Source of the DNA: Candidatus Gottesmanbacteria bacterium
GTDB taxonomy: Bacteria > Patescibacteriota > Microgenomatia > 2-02-FULL-39-11
Assembly (NCBI GenBank): GCA_016186795.1
Contig: JACPKY010000002.1
Coordinates: 604,771-668,770, forward strand
Length of the DNA stretch: 64,000 nucleotides
Direction of reading: 5' to 3'
Of this stretch, positions 1,075-47,855 are shown piece after piece (the stretch's first letter is position 1; every line of letters begins with the position of its first letter). A program made the translations under genes and the position numbers. The notes under the pieces were generated by a model. That model saw only the letters and a list, made by a program, of their open reading frames with translations. It did not search any database and was not told where the DNA came from.

Positions 1075-1087
1075 CAGGTAATAATAG

Positions 1088-19052: not shown

Positions 19053-19948
19053 CGTTTTTTCCTCTCTTCCCAAAAAACAAGAAGTGGAGCTGCGTTAAAA
19101 ATTGAGGAATACGTTCCAGAGACTATTCCAATAAGAAGAGCGACCACAAACCACCGTATAGATTCTCCCCCAAAGAGAAGTAAACTAAAAAGCGTAAAAA
19201 TGACGGTCAAGGATGTTGCCAGAGATCTAGCAAGCGTCTGAATGATCGAAACATTGACGATATGTTCAAAAGATTGCGAGGGCATCTTTTGTAAGTTTTC
19301 CCGGATTCGATCAAAAACAACAATCGTGTCATGAACAGAAAATCCCATAATTGTTAAAAGGGCTGTAATAAATAATGTATCAATTTCAACGTGAAAAAAA
19401 TGGCCAAAGATGGAAAAAATACCAACGACAACGAGTATGTCATGGATAAGTGCTGCAACGGCGCATATTCCAAACTTCACGGATGAATACGGTTTCGGAA
19501 CCTGCCGGAATGCCAATGCGATATAGATAATAATAGCAACAGATGCAATGAGAACTGCTTTCATAGCGTTTGCCGTTGTCTCACTCCCGATCGTTGGACC
19601 AACTGTCTCATACCGTAATTGGGTAATATCCCCGTACCCATTTTTCAAAGCGTTCTGCAGTTCCCTATTTTTGATAGTATCAATGGGCTTTAGACGGAGA
19701 AGATAGGTATTTTCACCCGACTTCTGAATCGAGGCAATTTCCACACTCTCTTTCTCAACCACTTGCCGGATCGATTCAGCAGAATGTGTTTTTTGTGGCG
19801 AAATCTGAAATTCAAGAAGCGTTCCCCCGGTAAAATCAATTGCGGGGCGAAGACCCCAAAAAACGAGCGCAACAATACCGGGAATAATAACTAATCCCGA
19901 AATCAGAAAGAATATTTTCTTTTTCCCTATAATGTTTGGTTCACTCAT
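19049..19948 (-). CDS. secF: protein translocase subunit SecF
   Basis: SecD/F family topology; paired with secD immediately upstream. Confidence 0.8.
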   Translation of the reverse strand: MSEPNIIGKKKIFFLISGLVIIPGIVALVFWGLRPAIDFTGGTLLEFQISPQKTHSAESIRQVVEKESVEIASIQKSGENTYLLRLKPIDTIKNRELQNALKNGYGDITQLRYETVGPTIGSETTANAMKAVLIASVAIIIYIALAFRQVPKPYSSVKFGICAVAALIHDILVVVGIFSIFGHFFHVEIDTLFITALLTIMGFSVHDTIVVFDRIRENLQKMPSQSFEHIVNVSIIQTLARSLATSLTVIFTLFSLLLFGGESIRWFVVALLIGIVSGTYSSIFNAAPLLVFWEERKKR

Positions 19949-32378: not shown

Positions 32379-33323
32379 ATGTTTATTGATGAGGCCGATG
32401 TTACGTTTGTTGCTGGACATGGTGGAGCAGGGAAAGCATCATTTTATCCCGGTTACAAATCCGGCCCAGACGGGGGAGATGGGGGAAACGGAGGCAATAT
32501 CTATATCTGTGCAACCTCGGATTTAACTACACTCAACCAATTTTCAAGTGTGAAGATCAAAAAAGCTGAAGATGGGTACCCAGGCCAACGATATAGAAAA
32601 TCTGGTAAAAATGGAAATAATGCAACGATACTGTTGCCAATTGGCTGTGAACTAATTGACCAGGATACTAACGAAATCATAGAGGTAAACAATACTACTC
32701 ACCCTATCCTTTTGTGTATATGTAAAGGTGGACAAGGTGGAAGAGGAACGTATGCGCTTGCTAACCCTTCCAATACAACACCCATCCATGCCGAACCTGG
32801 GCAACCTGGGCAAAAAAGACGAATTCACATCGAGTTGAAACTCATCGCGGATTATGGACTCATTGGTCTTCCAAACGTAGGAAAAAGCAGCCTTCTTAAC
32901 CAACTTACAGCTGCAAAAGTCAGAGTAGCACAGTATCCTTTTACTACGGTGGAACCAAACCTCGGAGTGATGAATGGAAAAATTATCGCGGATATCCCTG
33001 GACTTCTAGAAGGAGCATCAAAAGGAAAAGGTCTTGGGATAAAATTTCTCAAACATATCGAAAAAGTACATATTCTTCTCCATTGTATTTCCGCAGAATC
33101 AGACGATGTTGTTGCCGATTATCAAATCGTACGAAATGAACTTCATTCTTTTAATCCGATGATGGATCAAAAGGAGGAAATTATTGTATTAACCAAATCC
33201 GATACAGTATCTGATACAGTAATAAAAGAAAAATCTAGCATACTTTCCAAATTTGGGGAAATACTTCCACTTTCTATTCATGATTTTGAAAAACTTCAAA
33301 AATTAAAAGAAGTATTACAGTAA
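32379..33323 (+). CDS. obg: GTPase Obg
   Basis: Obg fold with a Gly-rich N-terminus (GGDGGNGGNIYI) and a G-domain (GLPNVGKSSL). Confidence 0.8.
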   Translation: MFIDEADVTFVAGHGGAGKASFYPGYKSGPDGGDGGNGGNIYICATSDLTTLNQFSSVKIKKAEDGYPGQRYRKSGKNGNNATILLPIGCELIDQDTNEIIEVNNTTHPILLCICKGGQGGRGTYALANPSNTTPIHAEPGQPGQKRRIHIELKLIADYGLIGLPNVGKSSLLNQLTAAKVRVAQYPFTTVEPNLGVMNGKIIADIPGLLEGASKGKGLGIKFLKHIEKVHILLHCISAESDDVVADYQIVRNELHSFNPMMDQKEEIIVLTKSDTVSDTVIKEKSSILSKFGEILPLSIHDFEKLQKLKEVLQ

Positions 33324-33326
33324 AAA

Positions 33327-33593
33327 TCAGAATAATTTTTTTTGTGCGTCTTTTGCTTCTATTTCCTCAATTGTTACGGGTACTTCAATAATTTTTTGTT
33401 TGGATGTTTCTCCGGACAAGATGAATATCTGAGATTGTGGCTTATTAAAATATTTTGAGAGAGATTGAATAATTGCGTTATTTGCTTTCCCAGAAACAGG
33501 AGGTTCTTTTACTGCTACGATAAAGTGGGTGGTATTCACTTTTTTGACATATGCTTTTTTATTTTTGGGTTTGGCGCGAATAAAGATTTTCAT
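33327..33593 (-). CDS. DUF167/YggU (UPF0235) family protein
   Basis: About 90 aa with the DUF167-like motif AKPKNKKAYVKKV...VSGKANNAII. Confidence 0.55.
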   Translation of the reverse strand: MKIFIRAKPKNKKAYVKKVNTTHFIVAVKEPPVSGKANNAIIQSLSKYFNKPQSQIFILSGETSKQKIIEVPVTIEEIEAKDAQKKLF

Positions 33594-33994
33594 TCGGAAA
33601 CTTCTTGTAACTGGTAATTATAATTGGGATTTATGATCCTTCGTATTTGTAGTTTGTGAGAATGAAAATCAACAACAAATGCGAGGGGCAAATTTTCTTT
33701 CAAAAGATACGCTGTCATCTGTTTATAAAACATTTTATGGTGGAGAAGATCTTTCCCTTTGGTATCCAAAAGTACTTTATCTTCAATAATAAAATCGATA
33801 ACGTGTCTATCAACGACTTTTCCTAAGTATTCAAGCTCAACTTCTTCATCGCAGCGGAAATGGAGCCCTTTTTGTGTTAGCTCATCTTTTATTGCTTCAC
33901 GGTACTGTTCATCATCAAGTGTTGGCCCACCCTCTTCGTGAATCCTAAAGCATATGCCAACAACCATGCGTACAAGAGTTGGTAAAAGAAGCAT
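33590..33994 (-). CDS. GxxExxY family protein (PD-(D/E)xK nuclease-like)
   Basis: ExxY motif (EQYREAIKDEL) and (D/E)xK-like residues. Confidence 0.5.
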   Translation of the reverse strand: MLLLPTLVRMVVGICFRIHEEGGPTLDDEQYREAIKDELTQKGLHFRCDEEVELEYLGKVVDRHVIDFIIEDKVLLDTKGKDLLHHKMFYKQMTAYLLKENLPLAFVVDFHSHKLQIRRIINPNYNYQLQEVSE

Positions 33995-34006
33995 AGAGAT
34001 TGTTAA

Positions 34007-34237
34007 TTACAGTGGATATCCCCCAGCGGGTTTCTTATCTTGCATCCACATGAATTTGTACATATCGCGTATCTCAATTGATGGATGGTCGTCAAATTGG
34101 TATTCCTTGTGGTCTTCGTTGTAATACTGAAGATGCTCTTTTATTCCATAGTAAAGAATTCTCGCAGCCTGAGATCTATTATTTGAATACGTATAGAAAA
34201 GTTTCCGGCAATACGAACAGCGATACATGTAGTACAT
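34007..34237 (-). CDS. hypothetical small Cys-containing protein
   Basis: ORF only; contains CSYC. Confidence 0.25.
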   Translation of the reverse strand: MYYMYRCSYCRKLFYTYSNNRSQAARILYYGIKEHLQYYNEDHKEYQFDDHPSIEIRDMYKFMWMQDKKPAGGYPL

Positions 34238-34276: not shown

Positions 34277-35812
34277 ATGATCTCTCATGATAAGATTGTA
34301 GTAATGGGAAATACAATGGATTCTCTTCCAATTTCTCCCGATGAAATTGCTCCTTCTCCGTGGGCGTTTTTTCCTCAACTCCGAGAAGGAGAAATTCATG
34401 AATTGAATGATCAAAGAATTCCAGATGATACACTGACTGCCCAATATGAATGGGGAACAATGAAACGGGTATTTTTTGCACCGGCTACTTTCCTCGGAAG
34501 AGATGCTGCCTTGAAAGTCTATCGAGACCCTTCAAAAGAAGACCAAGCTCTTGATTTTTCCAAAGAGGATATTCCAATAATTATCCATCCCAATGGATTG
34601 GCTACCGAGGAACCACCAATTGGAACAGTGGAGCTCTCGCAATTTAAACGTGAGGCTTATTTACGTGCCAAAAAAAATTTTGGAGATCGAGTTCCACCTA
34701 CTTCTTTCTTTCTGGCAAGGGACCATAAAAATATTCTACGAAATTGGGAAGCACAGGTATGGATACACGGTGACATTATTAGTCAATATGCTGGAATTAT
34801 TCCATTTCTTGAACATGGGGCGAATTCATTTGGAACAATTATCCAAGCAGCAGAAACGATGCTTGAAGAAACAGGATATTTACCAGATTTTCAAGGGAAT
34901 GTGCTGGATAACAGAAACATTATCTGCACGGAAGAAGGCGATTGTTTTCTTGTCGATACCGATGGACAACTGCAAATTGATCCAGATCTTTTCTCAAAAA
35001 TAAAACGTGCGGGAGAAAAAATTGTTACTGCTGGAAAACTCCATCCTGAGATAATAACCTGGATGGAAAAGTCAGATTCTGACCAGGCCTTTCGTTGTAA
35101 ACAACTTCTTCAAACCACAGTTAACTCAATTCAAGAAGCAAAACAATATCTTGTAAAAGCTTTGGAGACTCCTCAGCTTAATGAAGCAGCGCGTGATCAA
35201 CTCTTTGTTCAGCACTTAGAAATCATGCCGATGAGTGTTTTTGATAAAGTAAATGTGCTGTTGGTATACAAAGGACTGCGAACAGCTACTACCACAGAAT
35301 TATCATTTTTTGAATATGATGAGACATATGATGAAACGATGGGTGAACCCGATAGTCGGACAATGACTTTACGTCAAGCAGAAAAACTAGAGACTTTCTT
35401 CAAGGAGTTTTCTCTCCCATATGAACGACAAAAACTGTATGAAGATGAGGAAAACCTTGATCTCTTCCATATTGATTTTCTTATTGGAAAAGATGCTAAA
35501 TCACTTGCTCAAATGAAAAAAGCTGATGGAATGAATGTCTTTGATCCACATCTTGATGAAGAATATGGTATTGCTTTGGGATTTCCAGAAACAGCAGCTC
35601 GAGCTCACTCTAGAGGGCAAACTATCCCTTTAGACGAATTACCTCCTGAAATTGCACAAAGTGAAGTACACCATTTTGCTCAATTTGATATGTCAAGAGA
35701 TCACTGGAAAGAAGAGTTTAAGATAAAACAACTATGGGCGGATACAGTGAAAAGACTTGCCCCCAAAATTTATCAAAATCTACTTTCTTTGGAGCCATTA
35801 CCTGAAAAATAA
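34277..35812 (+). CDS. hypothetical protein (511 aa), no confident domain
   Basis: A long, uninterrupted ORF with coding-like composition. Confidence 0.4.
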   Translation: MISHDKIVVMGNTMDSLPISPDEIAPSPWAFFPQLREGEIHELNDQRIPDDTLTAQYEWGTMKRVFFAPATFLGRDAALKVYRDPSKEDQALDFSKEDIPIIIHPNGLATEEPPIGTVELSQFKREAYLRAKKNFGDRVPPTSFFLARDHKNILRNWEAQVWIHGDIISQYAGIIPFLEHGANSFGTIIQAAETMLEETGYLPDFQGNVLDNRNIICTEEGDCFLVDTDGQLQIDPDLFSKIKRAGEKIVTAGKLHPEIITWMEKSDSDQAFRCKQLLQTTVNSIQEAKQYLVKALETPQLNEAARDQLFVQHLEIMPMSVFDKVNVLLVYKGLRTATTTELSFFEYDETYDETMGEPDSRTMTLRQAEKLETFFKEFSLPYERQKLYEDEENLDLFHIDFLIGKDAKSLAQMKKADGMNVFDPHLDEEYGIALGFPETAARAHSRGQTIPLDELPPEIAQSEVHHFAQFDMSRDHWKEEFKIKQLWADTVKRLAPKIYQNLLSLEPLPEK

Positions 35813-35917
35813 CAAGTTACCTTTTCCAATTATTTCCCACGAAAAAGTAAAAGAGAGGATGTTTTCTACTCTTTACCAAAATTTGAAAACGTACATAGCC
35901 GCTATATACTATGAGTA

Positions 35918-36394
35918 ATGAAGCAATTTCCGAAGCTGCTGTTTGCCATTATTCTTTGTGAAAGCGTTGGAATTCTGGCTACTCCCATAACTATTTCTGC
36001 CATTGAAAATTGGTACAACACCCTCAATAAACCTTACTTTTCACCTCCCAACTGGGTATTTGGCCCGGTTTGGACGCTCTTGTATCTGATGATGGGAATT
36101 TCTCTCTACCTTGTTTGGATGAAAGGATGGAAAAAGAAAAAAGTACAAGTTGCTCTTGTTGTTTTTCTCATCCAGTTAGGAGCTAATTTCCTGTGGTCAC
36201 TCCTTTTCTTTGGACTTCATTCTCCTCTTTTGGGATTTATTGATATCATTTTCCTTTTACTTTCTCTGGGAGCCACCATCTACTATTTTTATTGCATTTC
36301 AAAAACCGCCGCGTATCTTCTCATTCCGTATTTTCTCTGGGTGAGTTTCGCATCGATTCTCAATCTCTCAGTTCTTCTTCTCAACTCATACTAA
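35918..36394 (+). CDS. tspO: TspO/MBR tryptophan-rich sensory protein
   Basis: Five TM helices and the motif FSPPNWVFGPVWTLLY. Confidence 0.75.
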   Translation: MKQFPKLLFAIILCESVGILATPITISAIENWYNTLNKPYFSPPNWVFGPVWTLLYLMMGISLYLVWMKGWKKKKVQVALVVFLIQLGANFLWSLLFFGLHSPLLGFIDIIFLLLSLGATIYYFYCISKTAAYLLIPYFLWVSFASILNLSVLLLNSY

Positions 36395-36420
36395 CTGCCG
36401 TAAGATACATCTGCACCGAA

Positions 36421-36471
36421 AAAGAAGCCAAAGATGCGGGATTTGTGAAATCCAAAGATTGCGACGAATAA
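36421..36471 (+). repeat. about 50-bp imperfect direct repeat, left copy, flanking the hicAB cassette
   Basis: GAAAAAGAAGCCAAAGATGCGGGATTTGTGAAATCCAAAGATTGCGACGAA. It contains the hairpin GGATTT-gtg-AAATCC. Confidence 0.45.
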
Positions 36472-36480
36472 TATATTTAC

Positions 36481-36512
36481 ACTTGACTATATAGTACTAT
36501 ATATAGTACTAT
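36481..36512 (+). promoter_or_regulatory. palindromic tandem repeat, likely hicAB promoter/operator
   Basis: Two copies of TATATAGTACTATATA follow a TTGACT -35-like hexamer, immediately upstream of hicA. Confidence 0.4.
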
Positions 36513-36524
36513 ATATTTAGTTGT

Positions 36525-36773
36525 ATGACGAAACGCCAGAAGAGATTGAAAAAGCTCTTTACGAATCCAAAGTCTGTCAGCTTTGAAGAGTTGAACCGGG
36601 TATTATTAGACTTGGGATTTACCAAAAGGCAGCCAAGGTCAGGAAGCAGCCATCATATATACACGAAAGGTGAGATACAAATTTCGGTGCCGTACAAACG
36701 TCCATACGTAAAGGAAATATATGTTAAACACGTTTTAGAAATTATTGGAGGAATATATGAAAAAAAATCTTAA
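36525..36773 (+). CDS. hicA: type II toxin HicA (mRNA interferase)
   Basis: About 80 aa with the GSHH motif (SGSSHHIYTKG). Confidence 0.7.
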   Translation: MTKRQKRLKKLFTNPKSVSFEELNRVLLDLGFTKRQPRSGSSHHIYTKGEIQISVPYKRPYVKEIYVKHVLEIIGGIYEKKS

Positions 36774-37104
36774 CTATTATCTTGGCCTTGATTATACTGT
36801 CAGACTGAAACAAAATGCTGACGGGACGTATTTTGCAGAAATTGAAGAACTCACCGGGTGCATATCCGAAGGAGATACGAAAGAAGAAGCCTTATCCATG
36901 ATCGAAGATGCAAAAAGAGCGTGGCTTGAAGTAGCATTGGAAAGAAAAACATACATCCCTGAGCCAACCACTGATGAATTCAGCGGTAAACTCAATATCC
37001 GTCTACCAAAATATATTCACCGAAAGTTATCGTATCGGGCAAGACAAGAAGGAATGAGTCTGAATAGTTTTATAAACTCTACTCTCTCTTCTGCAGTTAA
37101 ATAG
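36757..37104 (+). CDS. hicB: type II antitoxin HicB with C-terminal RHH domain
   Basis: RBS GGAGGA upstream. RNase-H-like N-terminal domain and a C-terminal RHH (KLNIRLPKYIHRKLSYRARQEGMSLNSFI). The gene overlaps hicA. Confidence 0.7.
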   Translation: MKKNLNYYLGLDYTVRLKQNADGTYFAEIEELTGCISEGDTKEEALSMIEDAKRAWLEVALERKTYIPEPTTDEFSGKLNIRLPKYIHRKLSYRARQEGMSLNSFINSTLSSAVK

Positions 37105-37131
37105 AAAATCAATATCAGTAAACGTCAAAGT

Positions 37132-37181
37132 GAAAAAGAAGCAAGAGACGCGGATTTACAAAATCTAAAGATTGTGAAAAG
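37132..37181 (+). repeat. about 50-bp imperfect direct repeat, right copy
   Basis: GAAAAAGAAGCAAGAGACGCGGATTTACAAAATCTAAAGATTGTGAAAAG, about 80% identical to the left copy. Confidence 0.45.
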
Positions 37182-37249
37182 TAGATTCTTTTCAATTATT
37201 TTCCTAATAGTAAAAGTGTTTATACGCGACAAATTTTAAACTTAATATT

Positions 37250-37903
37250 CTAAGTGACCTGAAGATGTAAGCCCTTTGTTAGCTCACTTGAAGAAATTTT
37301 ATATTTACGAGAGAAATGAGAAAATTTCAATCCTTTTTGTAATAATTTGGATCTTTCTACAGCTTTTTTTAAATCAAGATAAAAAAGTCCTGGATGTAAT
37401 TTTATCCAAATATTTTTTGATTGTTTCGAGAAACTTAAATGATCTGATAATCTTTGTTTCTTAAAATAATCTAAGTTAAAACCATGTTCAGCACCTGTTA
37501 GAGATATTCCTAAATATTTTTTATTACTTAGTTCAACTGATATTTGTTGATATTGGTGTGCCTGGCCGTTCCTAATTAGGTCAAAAAGCATCGAAAGTAA
37601 TTCATCACCTATATTATTATTCAAAGAAGGCAAAGAAAAGTCTTTAGTTTTTATACTAAGTCCACTTATTCGTGTAAAATATTTTGGCTCTATTTTTGAT
37701 AATTCGCTGGCATACTCATGTAAGATAGTTTTATTATCTAGACACAATCTCGCTATAAACTCTAAAAGGATAGTAGCTAAAAGTGCAAACATAAAATTTC
37801 CCCTGTTGGTTGCATTTTGATTGTTCGCAATACAATTCCATGTTTGCTCAAAATCACCTGTAATAAAATTATATAACGTTTGTGGGGAAAGATTTGTATT
37901 CAT
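37250..37903 (-). CDS. hypothetical protein encoded in an AT-rich islet
   Basis: GC is about 28% against about 40% in the flanks. The start was taken at MNTNLSPQ to avoid overlap with ilvD. Confidence 0.35.
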   Translation of the reverse strand: MNTNLSPQTLYNFITGDFEQTWNCIANNQNATNRGNFMFALLATILLEFIARLCLDNKTILHEYASELSKIEPKYFTRISGLSIKTKDFSLPSLNNNIGDELLSMLFDLIRNGQAHQYQQISVELSNKKYLGISLTGAEHGFNLDYFKKQRLSDHLSFSKQSKNIWIKLHPGLFYLDLKKAVERSKLLQKGLKFSHFSRKYKISSSELTKGLHLQVT

Positions 37904-37905
37904 TT

Positions 37906-39618
37906 TTAACTTGTCACGGCGCCTTTGGAGGCGCTGCTTACCAGTTTGGCGTATTTTGCTAGCACTCCCCTTTTGTATTTGAAATTTGGTCTTTTCCATT
38001 TTCTCTTTCTCTCTTCCAAAACTTTAGCATCAACATCAATATCTACTACTCTTCTTGTCAGATCAATAGTGATACTATCCCCTTCCTCTACCAATCCAAT
38101 CGGTCCGCCGACGTGAGCTTCCGGCGAGACGTGACCGACCATGATACCGTGTGTTCCTCCGGAAAATCTGCCATCGGTAATAAGAGCCACGTCTTTCCCC
38201 AGTCCTGCCCCCATCAGTGCTGATGATGGAGATAACATTTCTCTCATACCGGGTCCTCCTTTGGGTCCTTCATTGCGAATAATAATCACATCGCCTTTTT
38301 TGATTTTCTTTGCCAAAATGGCATCGAGGGCATCTTCTTCCTTATCAAAAACTCTGGCAGGACCGGTATGTTTATCCAGCTCCTTTCCACTTAACTTGAT
38401 AACGGCTCCTTCTAGTGCAAGAGTTCCATAAAGAACAACAATATGATGCTCTGGCGATGCAAATGGCTTTTTTACATGAGCAATAATTTTCTGATCCTCA
38501 GGAAAATCCGGTGCTTCTTTGAGGTTTTCTGCAACAGTTTTCCCAGAAACGGTAAGACAGTCTCCATGGATAAGGTCTTCTTTAAGAAGCATTTTCATCA
38601 CCATTGGGATCCCACCAATGTTATCCAGATGTTCCATCATGTATGATCCAAATGGAGAAAAGTTTCCCAGAAGCGGAACATTTTTGGCAACTTCCGTAAA
38701 ATCATCAAGGGTTAAGGAAACCTCGGCTTCGTGAGCTAACGATAATAAATGTAATACTGCATTGGTTGATCCGCCAAGGGCAAGGACAACAGCAATAGCA
38801 TTTTCAAACGCTTTTCGCGTCATAATATCGCGGGCGTGAATTCCTTTTTCCATCAAATGGAAAAGCGCAGCAACACTTTCCATACAATCTTTCTTCTTCT
38901 TTTCTGAAATTTTATTCTCCCTGTCAACTGCCGGATGAGAAGCGCTTCCCGGCAAGCTCATACCAAGTGCTTCAATTGCTGAAGCCATGGTATTTGCCGT
39001 ATACATACCTCCACAGGCACCGTTTCCCGGACAAGCATTACACTCTATCCGATGAAATTCTTCATCAGTTATTTTGCCAACTCCGGCTGCACCCACTGCT
39101 TCAAAGACACTGACGATATTTAAGTCTTTCCCATTCCCTATCCCTGGTAAAATTGTCCCGCCATAAAGAGTTATTCCAATCGAGTTATTGCGGGCAAGAG
39201 GAATAAGAGCCCCAGGAATTGTTTTATCGCATCCAGCAAGAGTAAAACTGGCATCCGTTGCATAAGACTCTTGCATCATCTCGATACAGTCGGCGATAAG
39301 CTCCCTTGAGACAAGAGAATATTTCATCCCTTCCATGCCCATCGTCTCTCCATCTGTGACAACCGGAGTCCCAAAAACAATGGGTTTTCCACCTTGTTTC
39401 TCAATTTCTGCACCAACAATTTTCCCAAGATCTTCGATATGCGCATTGCAGGGAGTGATGTTGATGGCTGGGCACGCAACAGCAATAAGTGGTTTGGTAA
39501 AATCTTCGTCAGTAAATCCAACTGCTCGCATCATGGCCCGGGCTGGGGCGCGCTTGATCCAGTCTTTTCCCCCGGGAGTACCAGTTAATTGGTTGCTGCG
39601 GTTTTTGAGGGATTTCAT
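37906..39618 (-). CDS. ilvD: dihydroxy-acid dehydratase
   Basis: ILVD/EDD family motifs (CDKTIPG and Fe-S cysteines). Confidence 0.9.
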
Positions 39619-40670
39619 TTTTTCTTCCAGTTCTCAGGTCGAAGTTGTCTTACTTGTTTTCCTGCCTGCCACATCTCCGAATTGCCCATTTCTTGGAGCT
39701 CGCAGTTCAAATCTTCTCTATAGTTGGGCTGACTGTTTTTATCCAAGACGCGTTTGGCCTCTGTCCCATCTGCAACTTTTTGATAAAGTTTCTCAAATAC
39801 CGGTTCGACTGCTTTTTTGAATTTGTCTTTCCAATCAAGTGCACCCCTTTGAGCAGTGGTACTTATATTTGCATACATCCAATCCATTCCTTTTTCGCCA
39901 ACAAGTTTTATTAGACTTTGGGTAAGCTCCTCAACTGTCTCATTAAACGCCTCAGAAGGTGAGTGACCTTTTTTCCGAAGCGTTTCATATTGCGCTTCCA
40001 TAACTCCAGTGAGAGCCCCAACTAAAATTCCCCTCTCACCTGTTAAATCACTAAATACTTCTTTCTCAAATGTTGTTGGGAATAAAAACCCGGACCCTAT
40101 GGCTATTCCTACTGCTAATACTTTTTCTTTTGCTTTCCCAGATGTATCCTGGAAAATGGCATAGCTACTATTTATTCCTGACCCATCAAGGAAGTTGCGC
40201 CGTACTGAAAGGCCGGATCCTTTTGGCGCTACCAAAATAACATCAACATCTTTGGGAGGAATAACACCGGTTAGATTTTTATAAGTTATCGAAAATCCAT
40301 GAGAAAAAACAAGTGTTTTCCCGTGGGTTAGATATTTTTGCAAAGTTGGCCAAAACGCTTTCTGTCCTGCATCGGAAAGTAAAAATAAGATAATCGTAGC
40401 TTTCTTTGCTGCAATTTCTAGATCAAAAAGAGTCTTGCCAGGAATCCACCCATCGGAAACTGCTTTGTCCCAGCTTTTGGAATTTTTCCGTTGACCAACG
40501 ATGACGTTAATTCCATTATCCCGCATGTTCTGGCTTTGCCCCGGACCTTGAACTCCGTATCCTAAGACGGCAACGGTTTCCTTTTTAAGAATTTCTTTGG
40601 CTTTCCCTAGAGGAAATTCCTCACGAGTTATGATATTTTCCTTAACTCCTCCGAAATCCAGTATTGCCAT
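39615..40670 (-). CDS. ilvC: ketol-acid reductoisomerase
   Basis: NADPH motif ([17 protein letters not shown]). Confidence 0.85.
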
Positions 40671-40683
40671 ACTTTTTCTCCCT

Positions 40684-41607
40684 TTATACCTTTGTGAGCC
40701 AATCTGAATATTTTTTCTGTTTTCCTCGAACGAGAGAAAAGAAAAGCTTATTTATTTTTTCTGTGATAGGGCCCATTTTCCCGGTACCAATTTTTCTCCC
40801 ATCAACTTCTGCTACCCAAGCAACTTGTGCTCCAGTGCCAGTTAAAAACGCCTCGTCAGCAATATATACCTCTGTCCTGTCTATATTCCTTTCCTCAGTT
40901 GGTATATCTAAATCATGAGCAAGTTGGAGAATTGTTCTTCTCGTCATTCCCTCTAAAACATCACCATATTTAGGAGGTGTAACAAGAACACCATCGCGAA
41001 CAATGAAAAAATTTGCTCCACTTCCTTCGGCGATATGGCCATCGGCAGACATTAGAAGTGCATCATCGTACCCAAGATTTGCGGCATCACCTCTGGCAAG
41101 AGACGAGTTTATATATCCTCCAGAAATTTTGGCACGTGAAGGAATCATATTATCATTTATCCTCACCCAATTGGAGATTGCCAGTTTCAACCCTTTGGTT
41201 ATGGAAAGGTACTCTCCCAATGGAATCATGTAGAGAGCAAATTCAAATGTTAATGGCGCAAGATCTGGTGAAAGGAAAAAGTCACTCCCATATGCAAAAG
41301 GGCGAAGATAATAATCAGTTTTCGGCTGATTTTTCCTTACCAACTCAAGCGTCGTATGCATCAGTTGTCCAAGATCGTACCGGATAGATTTGTTAAGAAT
41401 TTTTAACGAGTTGAGAAATCTTTTGTAATGATCCTCGAGCCGGAAAATATACGTATGCTTTTTATCTGATGACGTATATCCCCGAATCCCCCCAAATATG
41501 GCATTACCATACTGAAGGGCATTGGTCATGATGTTTACCTTTGCTGTCTCAATTGGGACTATATTTCCTTCAAAAAACGCAAATGGAAATGATCGTGTAT
41601 CTTTCAT
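40684..41607 (-). CDS. ilvE: branched-chain amino acid aminotransferase (class IV)
   Basis: Fold-type IV PLP motifs. The start was trimmed to MKDTRSF. Confidence 0.8.
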   Translation of the reverse strand: MKDTRSFPFAFFEGNIVPIETAKVNIMTNALQYGNAIFGGIRGYTSSDKKHTYIFRLEDHYKRFLNSLKILNKSIRYDLGQLMHTTLELVRKNQPKTDYYLRPFAYGSDFFLSPDLAPLTFEFALYMIPLGEYLSITKGLKLAISNWVRINDNMIPSRAKISGGYINSSLARGDAANLGYDDALLMSADGHIAEGSGANFFIVRDGVLVTPPKYGDVLEGMTRRTILQLAHDLDIPTEERNIDRTEVYIADEAFLTGTGAQVAWVAEVDGRKIGTGKMGPITEKINKLFFSLVRGKQKKYSDWLTKV

Positions 41608-41609
41608 AG

Positions 41610-42047
41610 TTACGAGCAGCCGCAGTTTCCGCCGCAACCACATCCTCCTTCTTCATGAGCCATAGGACGCGTAATATAGGCAACTGCATCTATTTCAACA
41701 AGAGCATCTTTGGGAAGTTTCGCAACTTGAACTGTTGCCCGTGCTGGATAGGGCTTTTGAAAAAATGAAGCATATACTTCATTCATCTTTCCGTAGTCAT
41801 CCATGCTTTTAAGATACACAGTTGTTTTAAGAATCGTTTGTAAACTTCCGCCAGCCTCTTCCAAGACATACTCGAGATTTGTTAATGCTTGACGAGTTTG
41901 TTCTTCAATTGCCCCTTTGACAAACTCCTTCGTTTTCGGATCAACACCGATATGACCGGAACAAAAAATTAAATCACCCAAGACAATCCCTGGTGAATAT
42001 GGGCCAATTGCCGCAACACCCTTTTTCGCAACAATTTCTTTTTTCAT
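41610..42047 (-). CDS. ridA: RidA (YjgF) family enamine/imine deaminase with a Cys/Gly-rich C-terminal tail
   Basis: RidA core followed by HEEGGCGCGGNCGCS. Confidence 0.7.
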   Translation of the reverse strand: MKKEIVAKKGVAAIGPYSPGIVLGDLIFCSGHIGVDPKTKEFVKGAIEEQTRQALTNLEYVLEEAGGSLQTILKTTVYLKSMDDYGKMNEVYASFFQKPYPARATVQVAKLPKDALVEIDAVAYITRPMAHEEGGCGCGGNCGCS

Positions 42048-43918
42048 AAGCTTTTCTCCTTTCGGTGGTTTTTCACTTGATAATACAATTCGTTGTACCC
42101 AGCAACATATGCATTCATCGATGCCACTATTATATCAGGAGATGTTCCTTTCTCGACTACTTGCGTACCATTTTGCGCCTGAAGCACCATTGTCACCTCT
42201 ACAGTTGAATCACTCCCAGTCGTTGGAATCTCAACGGTAAAATCTGAGAGTTTAAATTTCAACCCATCGTGTTTTGCGATAACCTTATTGATTGCAGAAA
42301 TTGCTGCATCGACCGGTCCAACCCCATCACTTTGTGCATGATACTTCTTCCCATGCAATAAAACATCAATGGTTGCTTTGGGCCGTTTATTTTTGGTATC
42401 CCAAATTTGAAAATCGGTAAGTGTGAGATATTTATTTTTTGTCTCCTGCTGAATAATTCCTTCAAGAATAGACTGAAGATCTGCACGTCCTATGACTTTT
42501 CCTTTATCTTTTATAAACTGACGTAAACGAAGATATGTTTCCTCTAAATCTCGTTTGGGTAACTTTATACCAAACTCGTCTTTCACCACGTTTTGTATCC
42601 GACTCTTTGTAGGAAGGGAGGAAAAAAGAATTTTTTCTTTGTCCCTCACTCCTTGTGCACGAAGCGCAAACAGATTCCCAGAAATAACTCTTTTCACTTC
42701 CTTCTCATCTGGTTCAATCGTTGGAGGTTCGGCAAGTACCTTCAGAGTTGCTGCTGGATCTTTCAAGCCAGCTCCTGTTGCAACACAGACAACACGATCA
42801 TCTCTTTGAATTGTTCCATCTCGTAACAGTTTCTTTAATGCAACAATAGTGGTTGCGGATGATGGCTCAATGTAGAGAGCTTCCAAATGAGCAAGTTCCT
42901 GCTGAGCTGCAAGCGTTTCCTCATCAGAGACCGAAACGACCATTCCATGTGAACGATTGAGCGCTTCTATAACCTTGACTCCATCAAGAGGATTCCCAAC
43001 TGCGATTGCCGAATTTATGGTCTTTGGATTTTTAACGGGTTTGATAAAAAACTCGCTCTTATCTGTTTTTTGAAATATCGAATGACACCCATAGGCCTGC
43101 ACTGCAATAAGTTTTGGAAGTTTTTCGATAAATCCTAAGCGGTAATACTCCCAAAACCCCTTCCAGATAGAAGCTAAATTTGTCCCCATTCCAACAGGAA
43201 CAATGACCCAGTCAATTATTGCCTCCCAAGTACTTTCTGCCAACTCAAACCCAAGAGACTTCTGACCCTCAGACCGAAAGACATAATCTCCCGCAAGGTA
43301 ATACCCGTATGTTTTGGCCGTCTTTTCTGCAAGCGTATTTGCCTCAGTGTATGTTCCACGTACCTGAATAACTTTGGCACCATACGATAGACTTTGTGCC
43401 AATTTTCCCCTTGGAGTGTTCTCGGGTACAAAGACAAAACACGAAAGACCTGCTTGAGCAGAGTAGGCTGCAACCGATGCAGCCATATTTCCGGTTGAAG
43501 CAACACAAACAGATGAGTATCCCAGTTCTTTTGCTTTATTGATTTCAATGAAACTTCCCCGATCCTTAAATGCTCCGGTTGGGTTAAGCCCTTCATTTTT
43601 AATAAATAGTTTGGGAATCCCGATTTTCTCACCAAGTCGTCGTGCCTGATGCAAAGGTGTTCCCCCTTCCTGCAGACTAATAAGATTGTCGCGGGTCTTT
43701 AAAGGGTAAAAATCAAGATATTTCAGTGTTTTTGATGGAGTATTTTTGAGTATGTATGCATTAACCTGCTTTTTCAGTTCGTCATAATCGTATGTTACAT
43801 CAAGGGGGCCTCTACACGAGAGACAACGTGACGTAGTCTTTAGCTCATCGGTCTTTTTATGGCAAGCAACACAGGAAAGATAGTATAGATTCTTATTCAT
43901 AAAAGAATTCAAATTCAT
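42044..43918 (-). CDS. threonine-synthase-like PLP enzyme fused to a C-terminal LeuA/CimA-type allosteric (LeuA_dimer) domain
   Basis: N-terminal Zn-ribbon (CxxC...CxxC) and ThrC-like fold-II PLP core (GGTPL...NPTGAFKDRG, EGQKSLGFE, TGAGLKDP). The C-terminal about 190 aa parallel the leuA C-terminus in this window (DGVGPVDAAISAIN against [13 protein letters not shown], plus a GSDS/GSDA block). Confidence 0.55.
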   Translation of the reverse strand: MNLNSFMNKNLYYLSCVACHKKTDELKTTSRCLSCRGPLDVTYDYDELKKQVNAYILKNTPSKTLKYLDFYPLKTRDNLISLQEGGTPLHQARRLGEKIGIPKLFIKNEGLNPTGAFKDRGSFIEINKAKELGYSSVCVASTGNMAASVAAYSAQAGLSCFVFVPENTPRGKLAQSLSYGAKVIQVRGTYTEANTLAEKTAKTYGYYLAGDYVFRSEGQKSLGFELAESTWEAIIDWVIVPVGMGTNLASIWKGFWEYYRLGFIEKLPKLIAVQAYGCHSIFQKTDKSEFFIKPVKNPKTINSAIAVGNPLDGVKVIEALNRSHGMVVSVSDEETLAAQQELAHLEALYIEPSSATTIVALKKLLRDGTIQRDDRVVCVATGAGLKDPAATLKVLAEPPTIEPDEKEVKRVISGNLFALRAQGVRDKEKILFSSLPTKSRIQNVVKDEFGIKLPKRDLEETYLRLRQFIKDKGKVIGRADLQSILEGIIQQETKNKYLTLTDFQIWDTKNKRPKATIDVLLHGKKYHAQSDGVGPVDAAISAINKVIAKHDGLKFKLSDFTVEIPTTGSDSTVEVTMVLQAQNGTQVVEKGTSPDIIVASMNAYVAGYNELYYQVKNHRKEKSL

Positions 43919-44421
43919 TTAAAAAGAGCTGTTCTTCCAGTACGGACAAATTCAATAATGCGATATTCTTTCATATTTTCGTAAAAAGCGTCAATTTTTT
44001 CCTCTCCACCGGTCACCTCAACTAAGAATGTATCTTTGGTCATATGGAGAACCTTTGCGCGAAAGTGCTCTATTATTTTTAATATTTCACCTTTTTCTCC
44101 CTTTCCTTTAATCTGAATTTTGGCAAGAGCCAGCTCGCGACTGATAAGTTTTTCATCGGCTACTTTCTCAACACGTAAAACATTTACCAGTTTGGCAACT
44201 TGTTTACACATATTGGCTACTTGGTCTCCGTTCCCAGAGACGGTGATGGTAAATCGCGTGACATTTGGTATCTCTGTATACCCAACGGTAGCGGTTTCGA
44301 TGTTGAACATTTTTCGACGAAAAAGCCAGAGAATTCGGAAAAAAACTCCGGGAGTATTTTCACTCCAAATGATAATTGTTGAAAGATTTTTTGCCATATT
44401 ACTTATCCTTGGGAGAAACAA
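43915..44421 (-). CDS. ilvH: acetolactate synthase small (regulatory) subunit
   Basis: N-terminal ACT domain; the gene overlaps ilvB. Confidence 0.8.
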   Translation of the reverse strand: MFLPRISNMAKNLSTIIIWSENTPGVFFRILWLFRRKMFNIETATVGYTEIPNVTRFTITVSGNGDQVANMCKQVAKLVNVLRVEKVADEKLISRELALAKIQIKGKGEKGEILKIIEHFRAKVLHMTKDTFLVEVTGGEEKIDAFYENMKEYRIIEFVRTGRTALFK

Positions 44422-46129
44422 TCATATCCGCAATTCCAGCTCCCGCTGGAATCATAGGAAACACGTTTTCTTCGGCTTCAACTACAAACTCTACTAAAAA
44501 AGGTCCTCTCTTTTTCCGTGCTTTGGAAATTGCCTCACGAGTTTCTTTAAATGTTTTTGCTTTTAAAGAGGGAATCCCAAACCCGTCACAGAGCTTTTGG
44601 AAATTTGGGTTTTTAAGCTTCACCTCAGAGTAATTCCCTTTGTAAAATAACTCTTGCCATTGCCGAACCATTCCCAAGAAATTATTATTCAGAAGCGCTA
44701 TTTTTACTTCAAGTTTTTCTTGAACGATTGTTGCCAATTCCTGGATGGTCATTTGAATTCCTCCATCTCCTATAACAATCCACACCTCACGATTGGAATC
44801 TGCACTTTTCACTCCCATTCCGGCGGGAAGTGCAAATCCCATAGTACCTAGTCCTCCTGAAGTGATGTGAGTGTTGTAATCATTAAACGTATAATATCGA
44901 GCAGCATACATCTGATTCTGCCCTACATCGGCAACAATAGTTGCTTTATTTTTAGTTTGTCTCGATATTTCCGCAATCACTTGCGCGGACTTTAAGTGCG
45001 GAGCATGCAGTTCTTTCTTATACACTTTTTCCGTTTCCTCGCGCTTCCACTGATGAAACCGCTTGAGCCACTGGGGATTCCGACGTTTGGAAAGCTTTGG
45101 AAGAATCTGCTCAAGGACCATTTTTGCATCTCCAACCACTCCAAGTGTTGGCTTTACGTTTTTCCCTAACTCAGACGGATCAATATCGATATGGATTATT
45201 TTTGCCTGTTGTGCGTACTTTGCGACATTCCCCGTCACGCGATCATGAAATCGCATTCCAACAGCAAGAATAACATCGGCTTCATTTGGGGCCCTGTTTG
45301 CGGCAACATTCCCGTGCATTCCCGGCATACCCATAAACAACCGATGTGTTGATGGAATTGTTGAAAGACCAAGCTGGGTGAGTGTTACCGGAATATCTTG
45401 TTTTTCTGCAATTTGCAAAAGTGTCTTCCCGTCACCTGAAAGAAGCATCCCATGTCCTGCGATAATAAGAGGACGAACGGCAGAATTTAACATGGATACT
45501 ATCTTTTCAACTTCTTTTGGTGTTGCTTGTAGTCTTACTCTTCCCTCAAGATGTTTTTTGGGCAAAGGAATATGAAATTCGGCATAGGCAGTTTGCGCAT
45601 CCTTTGTGATATCAACAAGTACTGGTCCGGGGCGCCCATGTGATGCAAGATAAAATGCCTCGTACAGACTTGGTGCAATATCTTCTGCTTTTGTCACCAA
45701 ATAATTGTGTTTAGTTACGGCAAGTGTCACACCCAAAACATCAGTTTCTTGAAACGCATCGGTTCCTAAAAGTGGCGATGGAACTTGTCCAGTTATACAA
45801 ACAAGAGGAACACTATCAAGCATGGCATCGGCAAGACCGGTCACAAGATTTGTTGCACCAGGTCCACTTGTTGCAAAACAAATGCCAGGTATACCGTTTG
45901 CCCATGCGTACCCTTCTGCAGCGTGAGCTGCTCCTTGCTCGTGACGAACTAAGATATGGTGGAGCTCCGGATATTTATACAAGGCATCGTAAATCGGAAT
46001 ATTTGCTCCGCCCGGATACCCAAATATTGTTCGGACACCGTGGCGAAGCAAACACTCACAGACTATATCTGCCCCTTGCACTTTTTCACCTTCTTTTAAT
46101 CTGGTTTTTAGTTTCGTTTTTTGCTCCAT
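44399..46129 (-). CDS. ilvB: acetolactate synthase large subunit (TPP-dependent)
   Basis: TPP-enzyme N-terminal, central and C-terminal domains (GDG...N motif). The start is ATG at 46129, with an alternative GTG at 46081 preceded by GAAGGTGA. Confidence 0.85.
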   Translation of the reverse strand: MEQKTKLKTRLKEGEKVQGADIVCECLLRHGVRTIFGYPGGANIPIYDALYKYPELHHILVRHEQGAAHAAEGYAWANGIPGICFATSGPGATNLVTGLADAMLDSVPLVCITGQVPSPLLGTDAFQETDVLGVTLAVTKHNYLVTKAEDIAPSLYEAFYLASHGRPGPVLVDITKDAQTAYAEFHIPLPKKHLEGRVRLQATPKEVEKIVSMLNSAVRPLIIAGHGMLLSGDGKTLLQIAEKQDIPVTLTQLGLSTIPSTHRLFMGMPGMHGNVAANRAPNEADVILAVGMRFHDRVTGNVAKYAQQAKIIHIDIDPSELGKNVKPTLGVVGDAKMVLEQILPKLSKRRNPQWLKRFHQWKREETEKVYKKELHAPHLKSAQVIAEISRQTKNKATIVADVGQNQMYAARYYTFNDYNTHITSGGLGTMGFALPAGMGVKSADSNREVWIVIGDGGIQMTIQELATIVQEKLEVKIALLNNNFLGMVRQWQELFYKGNYSEVKLKNPNFQKLCDGFGIPSLKAKTFKETREAISKARKKRGPFLVEFVVEAEENVFPMIPAGAGIADMIVSPKDK

Positions 46130-46130
46130 A

Positions 46131-46170
46131 AAACAAAAAACCTCTCGTTTCTTGAGAGGTTTCAATCTTT
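46131..46170 (-). terminator. attenuator terminator immediately upstream of ilvB
   Basis: Minus-strand AACCTCTC-aagaaac-GAGAGGTT followed by TTTTTGTTTT, ending at the ilvB ATG. Confidence 0.55.
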
Positions 46171-46180
46171 ATTCTTACTT

Positions 46181-46276
46181 TTATTTCTTTATTCTTGCCT
46201 TTATTACCTCCCAAGAATATCCCTGCACAATTGCAAGGACAATAACTGAGAGAATAATAAGGTTATTTTTGATCAT
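46181..46276 (-). CDS. ilv operon leader peptide (MIKNNLIILSVIVLAIVQGYSWEVIKARIKK)
   Basis: A 31-codon ORF with a run of 11 Ile/Leu/Val codons in 13 positions, lying between the promoter and the terminator. Confidence 0.5.
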   Translation of the reverse strand: MIKNNLIILSVIVLAIVQGYSWEVIKARIKK

Positions 46277-46286
46277 GACTGGTGGA

Positions 46287-46315
46287 ACTATAACAAAGTG
46301 ATACTTTACTGTCAA
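46287..46315 (-). promoter_or_regulatory. sigma70-type promoter of the ilv leader/operon
   Basis: On the minus strand, a consensus -35 TTGACA, a 17-nt spacer and a -10 TATAGT. Confidence 0.55.
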
Positions 46316-46325
46316 TAGGCATGTT

Positions 46326-47855
46326 TTAGAAAAGTTCTTCTTCCCTAGGTCTGTATTGGAGAGCTTCTGCAATAAATCTTGGTTCAACGATTTTTTCTTC
46401 CTCTAAATCTGCGATAGTTTGCGCAAGTTTTATTATCCGGTGGTAACTTCTCGCCGATAACTGTAATGAAACTACAGCTTTTTTTAAAAGTGATAGACAC
46501 TCGGTTGATAAAGGAATAAATTCTTTTATTTCCTTTGACCGTAAATCACTATTACAGGTAAATGGAGTTCCCTTAAACCGTCTCAATTGTATATCTCGTG
46601 CTTTTTGAACTCGTTTCCGAACTATTTTCGATGAATCTAGTCTCTTTTCACCTGTCAACGCTTCGATTTTTACCTGTGGCAGATGTATATGAAGATCAAT
46701 ACGATCATAAATAGGACCTGATACTCGCTTTGTGTACCGTATAATCTGCCCGGCAGGACAGGTACACTTCTTGGTAAGATCTCCAAAATTTCCGCATGGG
46801 CATGGATTTGCTGCAGCAACAAGCATGAATTTCGCCGGATAGGTAATTGTTCCAGATGCTCGTGAAATAGTCACAATACCATCTTCAATTGGCTGCCGAA
46901 GAGCTTCAAGTACAGATCTCGGAAATTCAGGAAATTCATCCAAAAATAAAACACCGCGATGCGCAAGAGAAATCTCTCCTGGAATTGGACGAGCCCCTCC
47001 TCCAATAAGTCCAATTCGAGATGTCGTATGATGTGGGGCTCGAAATGGTCGTGACGAAATAAGCGAGCGACCTTGAGAAAGATTTCCCGTGATTGAATAT
47101 ATTTTTGTCACCTCAAGAGCTTCATTTTCTGTCAAATCGGGTAGTATTGCCGGAAACGCCCGTGCAAGCATTGTTTTTCCAGCCCCTGGTACTCCTTTGA
47201 AAAAAATATTATGACCTCCGGCTGCAGCAATCTCAAGCGCACGCTTCCCTTGCTCTTGCCCAAGTACATCAGAAAGATCAAACTCTGCGCTTTTTTCCTC
47301 ATGAAAAGTATGAAACGAAACATGAGGTAAAGGAGAAATACTGCTCGTCCCTGTTATATGTCGAAAAAGTGCCAGAAGTGATTGGCACGGATAAACAGAT
47401 ATGTGATCAATAATTGCTGCTTCTTTCGCATTGATTTCAGAAAGATAAAGACCGGTAAATTTTTTCTCTTTTGCAAGGAGTGTAACTGGAAGAACTCCGT
47501 TGGTATGTGTAAGCGACCCATCAAGTGACAATGCCCCATACGCAAGTATCCGAGAATCTACTTTCGGAAGCTGGCCTGAGGCAATGAGAATGCCAAGAGC
47601 AATTGGCAAATCATAGGCCGGTCCATCTTTTGGAATATCAGCTGGTGCCAGATTGACGGTAATTCTATGTGGAGGAAACTCTGCACCGGAGTTTCTTATG
47701 GCTGAGCGTACTCTTTCTTTTGATTCTTCAACTGATTTTGAGGGAAGACCAACAATGGTAAAGGATGGAAGACTTTTGGTTGATATATCAACTTCGACAA
47801 TAATTGGGATTGGTTCAAGACCGACTGTTGCACCAGAATGTATTTTTGCAAACAT
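46326..47855 (-). CDS. comM: YifB/ComM family Mg-chelatase-like AAA+ ATPase
   Basis: N-terminal Lon-like domain, AAA+ Walker A (GVPGAGKT) and a C-terminal domain. Confidence 0.8.
   Translation of the reverse strand: MFAKIHSGATVGLEPIPIIVEVDISTKSLPSFTIVGLPSKSVEESKERVRSAIRNSGAEFPPHRITVNLAPADIPKDGPAYDLPIALGILIASGQLPKVDSRILAYGALSLDGSLTHTNGVLPVTLLAKEKKFTGLYLSEINAKEAAIIDHISVYPCQSLLALFRHITGTSSISPLPHVSFHTFHEEKSAEFDLSDVLGQEQGKRALEIAAAGGHNIFFKGVPGAGKTMLARAFPAILPDLTENEALEVTKIYSITGNLSQGRSLISSRPFRAPHHTTSRIGLIGGGARPIPGEISLAHRGVLFLDEFPEFPRSVLEALRQPIEDGIVTISRASGTITYPAKFMLVAAANPCPCGNFGDLTKKCTCPAGQIIRYTKRVSGPIYDRIDLHIHLPQVKIEALTGEKRLDSSKIVRKRVQKARDIQLRRFKGTPFTCNSDLRSKEIKEFIPLSTECLSLLKKAVVSLQLSARSYHRIIKLAQTIADLEEEKIVEPRFIAEALQYRPREEELF

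Follow-up and report, generated by a model that had tools for sequence, protein, structure and literature searches.

In a 64,000-nt stretch of the genome of a Candidatus Gottesmanbacteria bacterium (hereafter the window), the ~1.5 kb that run from tspO to the end of the ilv operon (36395-37905) appear to form a small slot for variable genes. The slot probably holds two unrelated accessory modules, a hicAB toxin–antitoxin (TA) operon and a lone gene for a protein of 217 amino acids (aa), with copies of a short direct repeat, here called R, at the junctions. While the hicAB pair offers nothing new, the 217-aa protein probably represents a new HEPN family, and the junction repeat is a small curiosity seen in two genomes. 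Every feature that an earlier note on this DNA had reported was found where that note had placed it; the comparison with a relative alters how several of them are to be read.

The relative, a 1.3-kb contig from another sample (L091), was reached by way of its HicB, which is the closest homologue (87% identity). The final 70 bases of the contig cover the minus-strand 3′ end of ilvD, which makes the locus syntenic with ours, at nucleotide identities of 77.5% in hicA, 81% in hicB and 84.5% in the ilvD 3′ end. The order along L091 is hicAB, R, a gene for 103 aa, R, ilvD. The 103-aa open reading frame (ORF; 806-1117, minus strand) occupies the place of the 217-aa gene; its product, hydrophobic with three predicted hydrophobic segments and without a Pfam match, could be a small membrane toxin or another type of cargo. 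The strongest direct repeat of the contig is the pair of R copies that brackets this ORF (34 nt, 74%; 704-737 and 1163-1196), of which the second lies between the ORF and ilvD, at the orthologous position before the ilvD stop. The sequence GGCTTTGCGAAATCCAAAGATTGTGGGGAATAA, which starts 5 nt past the hicB stop of L091, is identical at 33 of 38 positions to R1, the left copy of the window. Because L091 keeps hicAB and R and carries another gene, we take the locus to be, in all likelihood, a variable slot with R at its junctions, and the accessory character proposed for the stretch in the earlier note holds to that extent.

The same comparison speaks against reading the whole stretch as a single integrated module for defence, with the 217-aa protein working alongside HicAB and the ~50-bp repeats as the ends of a mobile unit, the interpretation that the earlier note had put forward. 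The genes are indeed adjacent and convergent, both classes are known from defence islands, the repeats do bracket hicAB, and homologues of the 217-aa protein sometimes adjoin TA-like pairs, for example XisH/XisI. Yet the repeats enclose hicAB only, leaving the ORF outside, and the GC contents of the two parts differ (37-38% against 29%). Moreover, hicAB and R are conserved in place in L091 at ~80% nucleotide identity with the ORF replaced, and six other neighbourhoods of the 217-aa family contain neither hicAB nor a common neighbour, so that the proposed partnership of the two finds no support in either direction. The hicAB homologues of two loci elsewhere (L092 and L093) have neither R-type repeats nor the 217-aa ORF, and bracketing by repeats is thus not a trait of hicAB cassettes as such; judging from these sequences, R appears to belong to the tspO-ilvD slot, where it marks each unit junction, rather than to be a general feature of hicAB. 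The single-module reading is largely refuted, and we give it hardly any probability.

The 217-aa gene (37250-37903, minus strand), the putative cargo of the slot and a member of an unannotated HEPN-like family, is convergent to hicAB, as had been noted, but co-directional with ilvD. Transcription of the ilv operon probably runs on into the gene, because its start lies 2 nt past the ilvD stop. A 249-aa reading that overlaps ilvD was ruled out, as the family alignment begins at M1 of the 217-aa form. With 29.4% GC the ORF is the lowest gene in the window (mean 39.9%, s.d. 2.8% in 654-nt windows), and 0.46% of the 654-nt windows reach a value as low. The deviant composition is limited to the ORF and the spacer before it; what had been described as an AT-rich islet therefore contracts to these two, the hicA and hicB genes having 37-38%. 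From the 29% GC and from the other gene that stands beside ilvD in L091 we infer that the 217-aa gene was horizontally acquired and is replaceable cargo.

The 217-aa protein has no match in Pfam, NCBIfam, PADLOC (E ≤ 1), PHROG or the PDB sequences, and its family has no relatives in IMG/VR, among the INPHARED phages or among the PLSDB plasmids. To this extent the ORF lacks a recognizable domain, as previously described, but it is no orphan: we found 237 homologues (E ≤ 1e-3) that are 38-50% identical to it from end to end, the named ones coming from Dehalococcoidia, Chloroflexota and Verrucomicrobiae, and a profile search extended the family to 441 clusters (50% level). No housekeeping homologue was found among them. 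In an alignment of 40 members, D17, W22, G35, N36, F37, L46, E48, Y75, P92, D108, R111, G113, H116 and D177 are invariant, and the family alignment contains the conserved block FDLIRNGQAHQYQQI. Some members, among them P0176 (529 aa), P0175 (344 aa) and P0205 (349 aa), carry N-terminal extensions of 115-290 residues without a Pfam domain, and these could have been joined to the HEPN-like core as sensor or partner domains. The exact 217-aa sequence (P0001) is recorded solely in Logan assemblies, whereas its neighbours TspO and HicB have NCBI records as well; in the public genome the gene may have been called from another start or left unannotated.

The genomic surroundings of the family are those of defence genes and mobile elements. 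One member lies right after a type I restriction-modification system with TIR and RAMA proteins, another adjoins XisH/XisI and a MazG-like gene, and a third is flanked by HEPN_Swt1, NERD and AAA_14 genes and an OLD-like ATPase. Two are found in integrase-bearing elements, one with an HNH nuclease, a Dam-type methylase and a PDDEXK_11 protein and the other with TrwB-like and relaxase-type proteins, and one stands beside a group II intron and an IS200-type transposase. When all ORFs within 3.5 kb were compared across these six neighbourhoods and the window, no common neighbour emerged, and hicAB occurred in none of the six. The 217-aa family is thus a single-gene module, which stands alone in defence islands or integrative elements, so that its likeliest role, by analogy, would be that of a stand-alone abortive-infection-type effector and not of a partner of HicAB. 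In this form the earlier suggestion of a defence or abortive-infection gene stays plausible, given a HEPN-like protein and a family that frequents defence islands and mobile elements.

HEPN proteins are described as four-helix up-down bundles with an insert between helices 2 and 3, in which an R-x4-6-H motif, with N, D or H after the R, ends helix 3, and helix 2 often has an acidic residue in an E-x3-[KR] motif (Anantharaman et al. 2013, PMC3710099). Our AlphaFold2 model of the 217-aa protein (predicted local distance difference test score 92.9, predicted template modelling score 0.89) has helices at 7-26, 36-53, 58-71, 102-112 and 171-185. It places E48-x3-R52 in helix 36-53, residues 58-101 as the insert, and R111-N-G-Q-A-H116 at the end of helix 102-112, with a break at 113-114 and H116 in a short turn; ahead of the last helix lies a family-specific, beta-rich insert of ~50 residues (120-169). 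Across the family, D-x2-R-[N/H]-G-x-[A/S]-H is present in 225 of the 239 full-length members, the residue after R being N or H only, and E-x3-[R/K] in 188 of the 239; in the alignment of 40 members E48 is invariant and R52 kept in at least 90%. We consider it likely that the family is a new one of the HEPN ribonuclease (RNase) superfamily, on an argument from motif and predicted fold that falls short of demonstrated homology. By analogy with HEPN enzymes, the protein would act as a dimer with a composite RNase site that needs no metal, cleaving RNA once triggered; RNase activity, dimerisation and a role in defence are all ascribed to it by that analogy.

HEPN RNases of defence and TA systems include AbiV, HepT of the MNT-HEPN pairs, LsoA/RnlA and Csm6 (PMC3710099). 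With these the 217-aa protein shares the R-[N/H]-x3-H motif ending helix 3, the E-x3-R motif in helix 2, the insert between helices 2 and 3 and, in the model, a four-helix core, and its family is likewise met in mobile elements and defence islands. It is small, as AbiV is, here with no adjacent antitoxin. It departs from the described HEPN families in the ~50-residue beta-rich insert between the motif and the last helix, in its additional invariant residues, in having no profile match, and in standing without a partner or fused domain such as MNT or CARF.

Several results weigh against the HEPN assignment. A Pfam search with 40 members at E ≤ 1 returned no HEPN family, neither a PDB profile search nor PADLOC gave a HEPN link, hhalign against one HEPN_Swt1 protein gave a probability of 0.1, and Foldseek against PDB and BFVD gave nothing informative; in addition, an RNase that is always active would be toxic if no antitoxin restrained it, and the analysis identified no regulator. 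The protein might instead be a helical protein of another kind, for example one for immunity or anti-defence, a regulator or a metal-binding enzyme similar to DinB, in which R-x4-H is coincidental. The missing profile and Foldseek matches and the missing antitoxin partner speak for this reading, and the invariant D17, W22, G35-N36-F37, Y75, P92 and D177 lie outside the HEPN signature. On the other side, three HEPN signatures that are independent of one another fall together where the secondary structure of a HEPN domain would have them, only N and H alternate after the R, in keeping with the HEPN rule, the histidine triads of the DinB type are absent, and the genomic contexts are typical of HEPN defence genes. 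We accordingly regard a non-HEPN identity as a serious alternative, though a rather unlikely one. The HEPN reading would give meaning to a family of several hundred clusters from at least four phyla that bears a HEPN catalytic signature and is invisible to Pfam, NCBIfam, PADLOC and PHROGs: if the protein is a true RNase effector, the family is a new single-gene defence candidate missed by current defence-finder tools, and at ~220 aa it is directly testable.

We turn to the repeat. R1 (36418-36464, plus strand; GAAAAAGAAGC..GGATTTGTGAAATCC AAAGATTGCG) is the left copy of the 47-nt junction repeat, as delimited by local alignment with R2, the right copy (37132-37177, plus strand), which is one base shorter, has a stem closing with G-T and is orthologous to the L091 copy after hicB. 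The two are identical in 38 of 47 columns, with one 1-nt indel, and their local alignment score of 47 is far above that of 500 shuffles (17.9 ± 2.8, maximum 28), which bears out the direct repeat said to bracket hicAB. Both contain GGATTT-nnn-AAATC[C/T], the hairpin that had been attributed to each repeat. The motif is there, but as a structure it is insignificant: the stem is weak, with six A/T-rich pairs, RNA folding of both strands of R1 and R2 gave z-scores of -0.3 to +0.7, as for shuffled sequence, and the hairpin is broken in an L091 copy. A box, AAAGATTGYG, is unchanged in all four R copies, while the coding DNA of both genomes is only ~80% identical.

Within the window, blastn-short, a degenerate pattern and an nhmmer profile found only the two copies of R, and there was none in 1.5 Mb of other fetched loci. 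A scan of metagenomes of the Joint Genome Institute with the R pattern GGNTTTNNNAAATCYAAAGATTGYG produced three matches; their flanks and GC are unrelated, hicAB is absent, and we treat them as chance. Rfam had no match at E ≤ 1 across 30-42 kb, and a terminator scan of 35800-38100 returned 0 sites. By its sequence and distribution, then, R does not look like a dispersed repetitive extragenic palindrome (REP), a miniature inverted-repeat transposable element (MITE) or a generic terminator, and the check for a dispersed element that the earlier note had called for came out in favour of a local one. The sole other exact AAAGATTGCG box of the window (19269-19278) has flanks unlike R. At its 3′ end (33344-33365, minus strand) a DUF167 gene has a stretch like the 5′ half of R (GAAATAGAAGCAAAAGACGCAC), with three mismatches to a 22-nt pattern; none was expected in 100 shuffles, the blastn-short E-value is 0.25, hairpin and box are missing, and the likeness is probably due to chance.

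The ilvD-proximal junction of the window contains the 10-mer TTGTGGGGAA (37880-37889, plus strand), which also occurs in an R copy of L091 (L091 731-740, 1190-1196) and stands where L091 has its third R copy. As evidence it is weak. The 10-mer coincides with codons 5-8 of the 217-aa gene on the opposite strand, and the nhmmer R profile did not detect it. It may be the remnant of a third R copy, microhomology or chance; its NLSPQ codons are conserved in the family.

We favour the view that R is a junction repeat from the original tspO/ilvD spacer: a piece of this native spacer would have been duplicated as genes were inserted or exchanged. Both the mode of origin and the present use of R are what we infer from its placement, and a number of observations weigh against this view. 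It is built on one 1.3-kb contig from one relative, and the copies of R were counted in 64 kb of a ~1.1-Mb genome; no recombinase occurs among the Pfam-annotated genes within ~10 kb; the orthologous upstream copy of L091 has decayed to ~62% identity; and the differences between R copies fall mostly on every third base, which fits a coding origin and goes unexplained by the junction model. That model alone likewise accounts for neither the invariant box nor the recurrence of TTGTGGGGAA at 37880-37889. The copies resemble each other across positions as well, the similarity of R1 to the post-hicB copy of L091 (33/38) exceeding that within the orthologous pairs (R2 against the same copy 20/25, upstream copies ~62%). 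Two routes to an empty site were followed and abandoned. Loci anchored on IlvD from 80 species representatives had no tspO, hicAB or ORF nearby, and the closest, with IlvD proteins of Candidatus Roizmanbacteria (76% identity) and of another member of Gottesmanbacteria (72%), are too distant; the route to close relatives through TspO ended at homologues no more than 70% identical.

Two other explanations dispense with insertion or give the repeat another source. R might be a functional 3′-end element that selection maintains and that has nothing to do with insertion: each transcription unit would be followed by an RNA-processing site or by a weak terminator, the latter acting in both directions or on the minus strand. 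Its positions agree with this, the copies lying 23, 27 and 5 nt past tspO or hicB stops and 61-62 nt past the 217-aa and 103-aa genes, with one just past ilvD in L091. The minus strand also reads as box, short hairpin and T-rich tract (TTTTTG abutting the stem in the L091 copy R′; CTTCTTTTTC in R1 and R2), and AAAGATTGYG has stayed identical in four copies at a coding identity of ~80%. Against such an element stand the empty terminator scan and a stem of six A/T-rich pairs with the folding energies of shuffled sequence. One copy, moreover, has a disrupted hairpin and another a displaced one, and the T-run of R1 and R2 is ~12 nt away from the stem; a common sequence of 47 nt is not normal for the terminators of separate operons, and the other genes in the 64 kb make no use of the element. 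We think a 3′-end element unlikely as a full account, while all R copies are so placed that they could act as weak terminators on the minus strand.

The third-base pattern is better served by supposing that the R copies are decayed coding fragments joined by recombination, either a plus-strand 3′ end or a minus-strand 5′ stub. Eight of the 12 substitutions between R1 and R2 occur at every third base (binomial p = 0.019), and over the four copies (36418-36471 and 37132-37184; L091 704-745 and 1163-1208) the variable columns divide 6/6/10 by phase. The plus strand can be read as ..GF[VTA][KS]SKDC[DEG][EK]*, with aligned stop codons in three copies, a serine codon that varies as TCC/TCT/TCG and a cysteine codon as TGC/TGT, and the minus strand as ..[SP]QS[LF][DE]F..; the minus-strand SPQSL resembles the N terminus of the 217-aa family, NLSPQTL, and R′ of L091 sits at the place of that N terminus in the window. 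What tells against this is that no source gene was found, that a usable start codon and an intact frame are missing from every copy, R2 being frameshifted, and that the statistics are weak, with few sites and the best of six frames chosen; the third-base signal also fits two frames on opposite strands and cannot tell which of them, if either, was coding. The tails of the adjacent genes were rejected as sources, longer HicB homologues being extended N-terminally or with unrelated tails and all TspO extensions being N-terminal. A coding origin of R consequently seems to us doubtful, more so than a 3′-end function.

Rather improbable, too, but of wider consequence, is that R is the recombination site of an undescribed integron-like system of cassette exchange in bacteria of the candidate phyla radiation (CPR), which would act through a distant recombinase and swap single defence or toxin genes; the 217-aa gene would then be cargo and the founder of a stand-alone HEPN abortive-infection family with a beta-rich sensor. 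Were R a true recombination site, it would point to a cassette mechanism new for CPR bacteria. Known sites of this kind were considered and set aside. Against a dif site or replication terminus (Xer/dif, or integrative mobile elements exploiting Xer) stands a cumulative GC skew that declines steadily across the window, without an extremum at 37 kb, and by eye R is unlike what we take to be the dif consensus. For an integron attC site, no RYYYAAC...GTTRRRY pair was present on either strand of 36300-38000. A structured RNA was rejected on the absence of an Rfam match and folding z-scores of about 0, and the apparently compensatory hairpin of R′ in L091, whose stem is 6 nt out of register with that of R1, was not counted as covariation.

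Returning to the favoured reading, a slot whose junctions carry copies of the native spacer, we find partial likenesses to known mobile systems. As in integron arrays and clusters of attC sites lacking integrases (CALINs), short, imperfect repeats of the same orientation, with a small hairpin, stand between single-gene or TA cassettes, and cassette content varies between related genomes at a fixed chromosomal place. Unlike those arrays, the locus has no attC architecture, a shorter repeat, a 6-bp stem, no intI within ~10 kb, and two or three cassettes only, which are oppositely oriented. With att-flanked islets it shares accessory TA or defence genes between housekeeping genes, imperfect direct repeats some tens of bases long and variable content; it differs from them in having no integrase and no tRNA target and in its single-gene units of 0.5-0.7 kb. 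In ANME-1 archaea, hicAB loci have been linked to structural variation and variable hotspots (PMC13385816). The locus described here shows the exchange of accessory genes at one fixed spot, at single-gene resolution, in a CPR genome of ~1.1 Mb.

The other module of the slot is, on sequence grounds, a canonical type II TA operon, ordinary and already annotated at NCBI, and the HicA/HicB pair that had been recognized from the DNA (36525-37104) has both Pfam and PHROG matches. The hicA toxin gene (36525-36773, plus strand) encodes 82 aa that match Pfam HicA_toxin (PF07927) over profile positions 2-57 of 58, with an E-value of 1.6e-5 and 25.4 bits, under the cut-off of 27, and a PHROG annotated 'toxin' (E = 4e-6). 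HicA toxins have their catalytic histidine in a motif of the G-S-H type; here the histidine of GSSH, H43 (S41-S42-H43), is invariant in four orthologues, and the N terminus has a basic extension of 20 residues. The hicB antitoxin gene (36757-37104, plus strand; 115 aa) matches PF15919 (HicB_lk_antitox) with residues 13-72 (42.2 bits, cut-off 27) and PF05534 (HicB/RHH, for ribbon-helix-helix) with residues 73-110 (42.4 bits, cut-off 21), the latter residues also giving weak matches of the Arc/CopG type. The protein is 100% identical to one of Candidatus Gottesmanbacteria in NCBI that is named HicB family antitoxin. The overlap of hicA with hicB measures 17 nt; the genes overlap also in L091 and L093 and are adjacent in L092. 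Neither protein had a phmmer match in PDB or a match in PADLOC-DB 2.0 at E ≤ 1.

Upstream of hicA, a consensus scan found a promoter-like site (36483-36512, plus strand) with a -35 element TTGACT, an 18-nt spacer and a -10 element TACTAT; TTGAC and the spacing are kept in L091, L092 and L093. Overlapping its -35 and -10 is the operator-like repeat already pointed out in the earlier note, which consists of two overlapping perfect 16-nt palindromes TATATAGTACTATATA, 12 nt apart (36488-36515, plus strand), and reads TATATAGTACTA twice plus TATA. Its core, TAGTACYA-N4-TAGTACYA, is invariant upstream of four hicAB loci in different contexts, and the surrounding DNA is not. Conserved palindromes over a promoter make the picture expected of a HicB-repressed promoter: HicA would be a small RNA-cleaving toxin that HicB binds and neutralises, and HicB, through its C-terminal ribbon-helix-helix domain, would repress hicAB at the two overlapping TATATAGTACTATATA palindromes that cover -35 and -10. 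The predicted -10 of hicA ends 12 nt upstream of the ATG (36512-36527), with no Shine-Dalgarno-like sequence, and judged by this spacing the hicAB mRNA would be leaderless or nearly so.

Type II HicAB systems with a ribbon-helix-helix HicB are represented by the HicBA of Streptococcus pneumoniae, the subject of a structural study (PMC6159526). The operon resembles known HicAB systems in the order of hicA before hicB with an overlap, in the small HicA with a conserved histidine, in the HicB-like N-terminal domain joined to a C-terminal ribbon-helix-helix, and in the operator-like palindromes over the promoter. It differs from them in a HicA just below the Pfam cut-off, with its basic N-terminal extension, and in its CPR host.

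The conserved flanks of the slot are tspO on the left (35918-36394, plus strand; TspO/MBR family, Pfam PF03073, 168 bits) and, on the right, ilvD (37906-39618, minus strand; Pfam families as for the same gene in L001), the last conserved gene of the ilv operon. TspO is 100% identical to a Candidatus Gottesmanbacteria protein of NCBI that lies on a contig of 1,118,283 bp, as does the identical HicB, and four Logan contigs from four sequencing runs have an identical gene arrangement. None of the Pfam-annotated genes within ~10 kb of the locus is an integrase, and the single tRNA of the window lies at 59610. The genes at 37906-47855 (minus strand) form a complete branched-chain amino-acid operon, with ilvB/N, a PALP+LeuA_dimer enzyme, RidA, ilvE, ilvC and ilvD, in a CPR genome of ~1.1 Mb. 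CPR genomes of such a size usually have no amino-acid biosynthesis. IlvD is 65-73% identical to proteins of contigs binned as Neisseriaceae or Gammaproteobacteria metagenome-assembled genomes (L007-L013, L015, L017), closer than to most bacteria, and this likeness suggests either horizontal transfer or CPR contigs that were mis-binned.

On the other side, tspO adjoins a 511-aa ORF (34277-35812, plus strand) that has no match in Pfam, NCBIfam, PADLOC or PHROG and is kept in all Logan contigs of the Candidatus Gottesmanbacteria host. Beyond it, the DUF167 gene mentioned above overlaps a PD-(D/E)XK (PDDEXK_3) gene by 4 nt and is followed by a family-less, Cys-rich ORF of 76 aa (33327-34237, minus strand); apart from the 217-aa gene and its spacer, 33134-33835 is the sole part of the window with a GC content below 31%.

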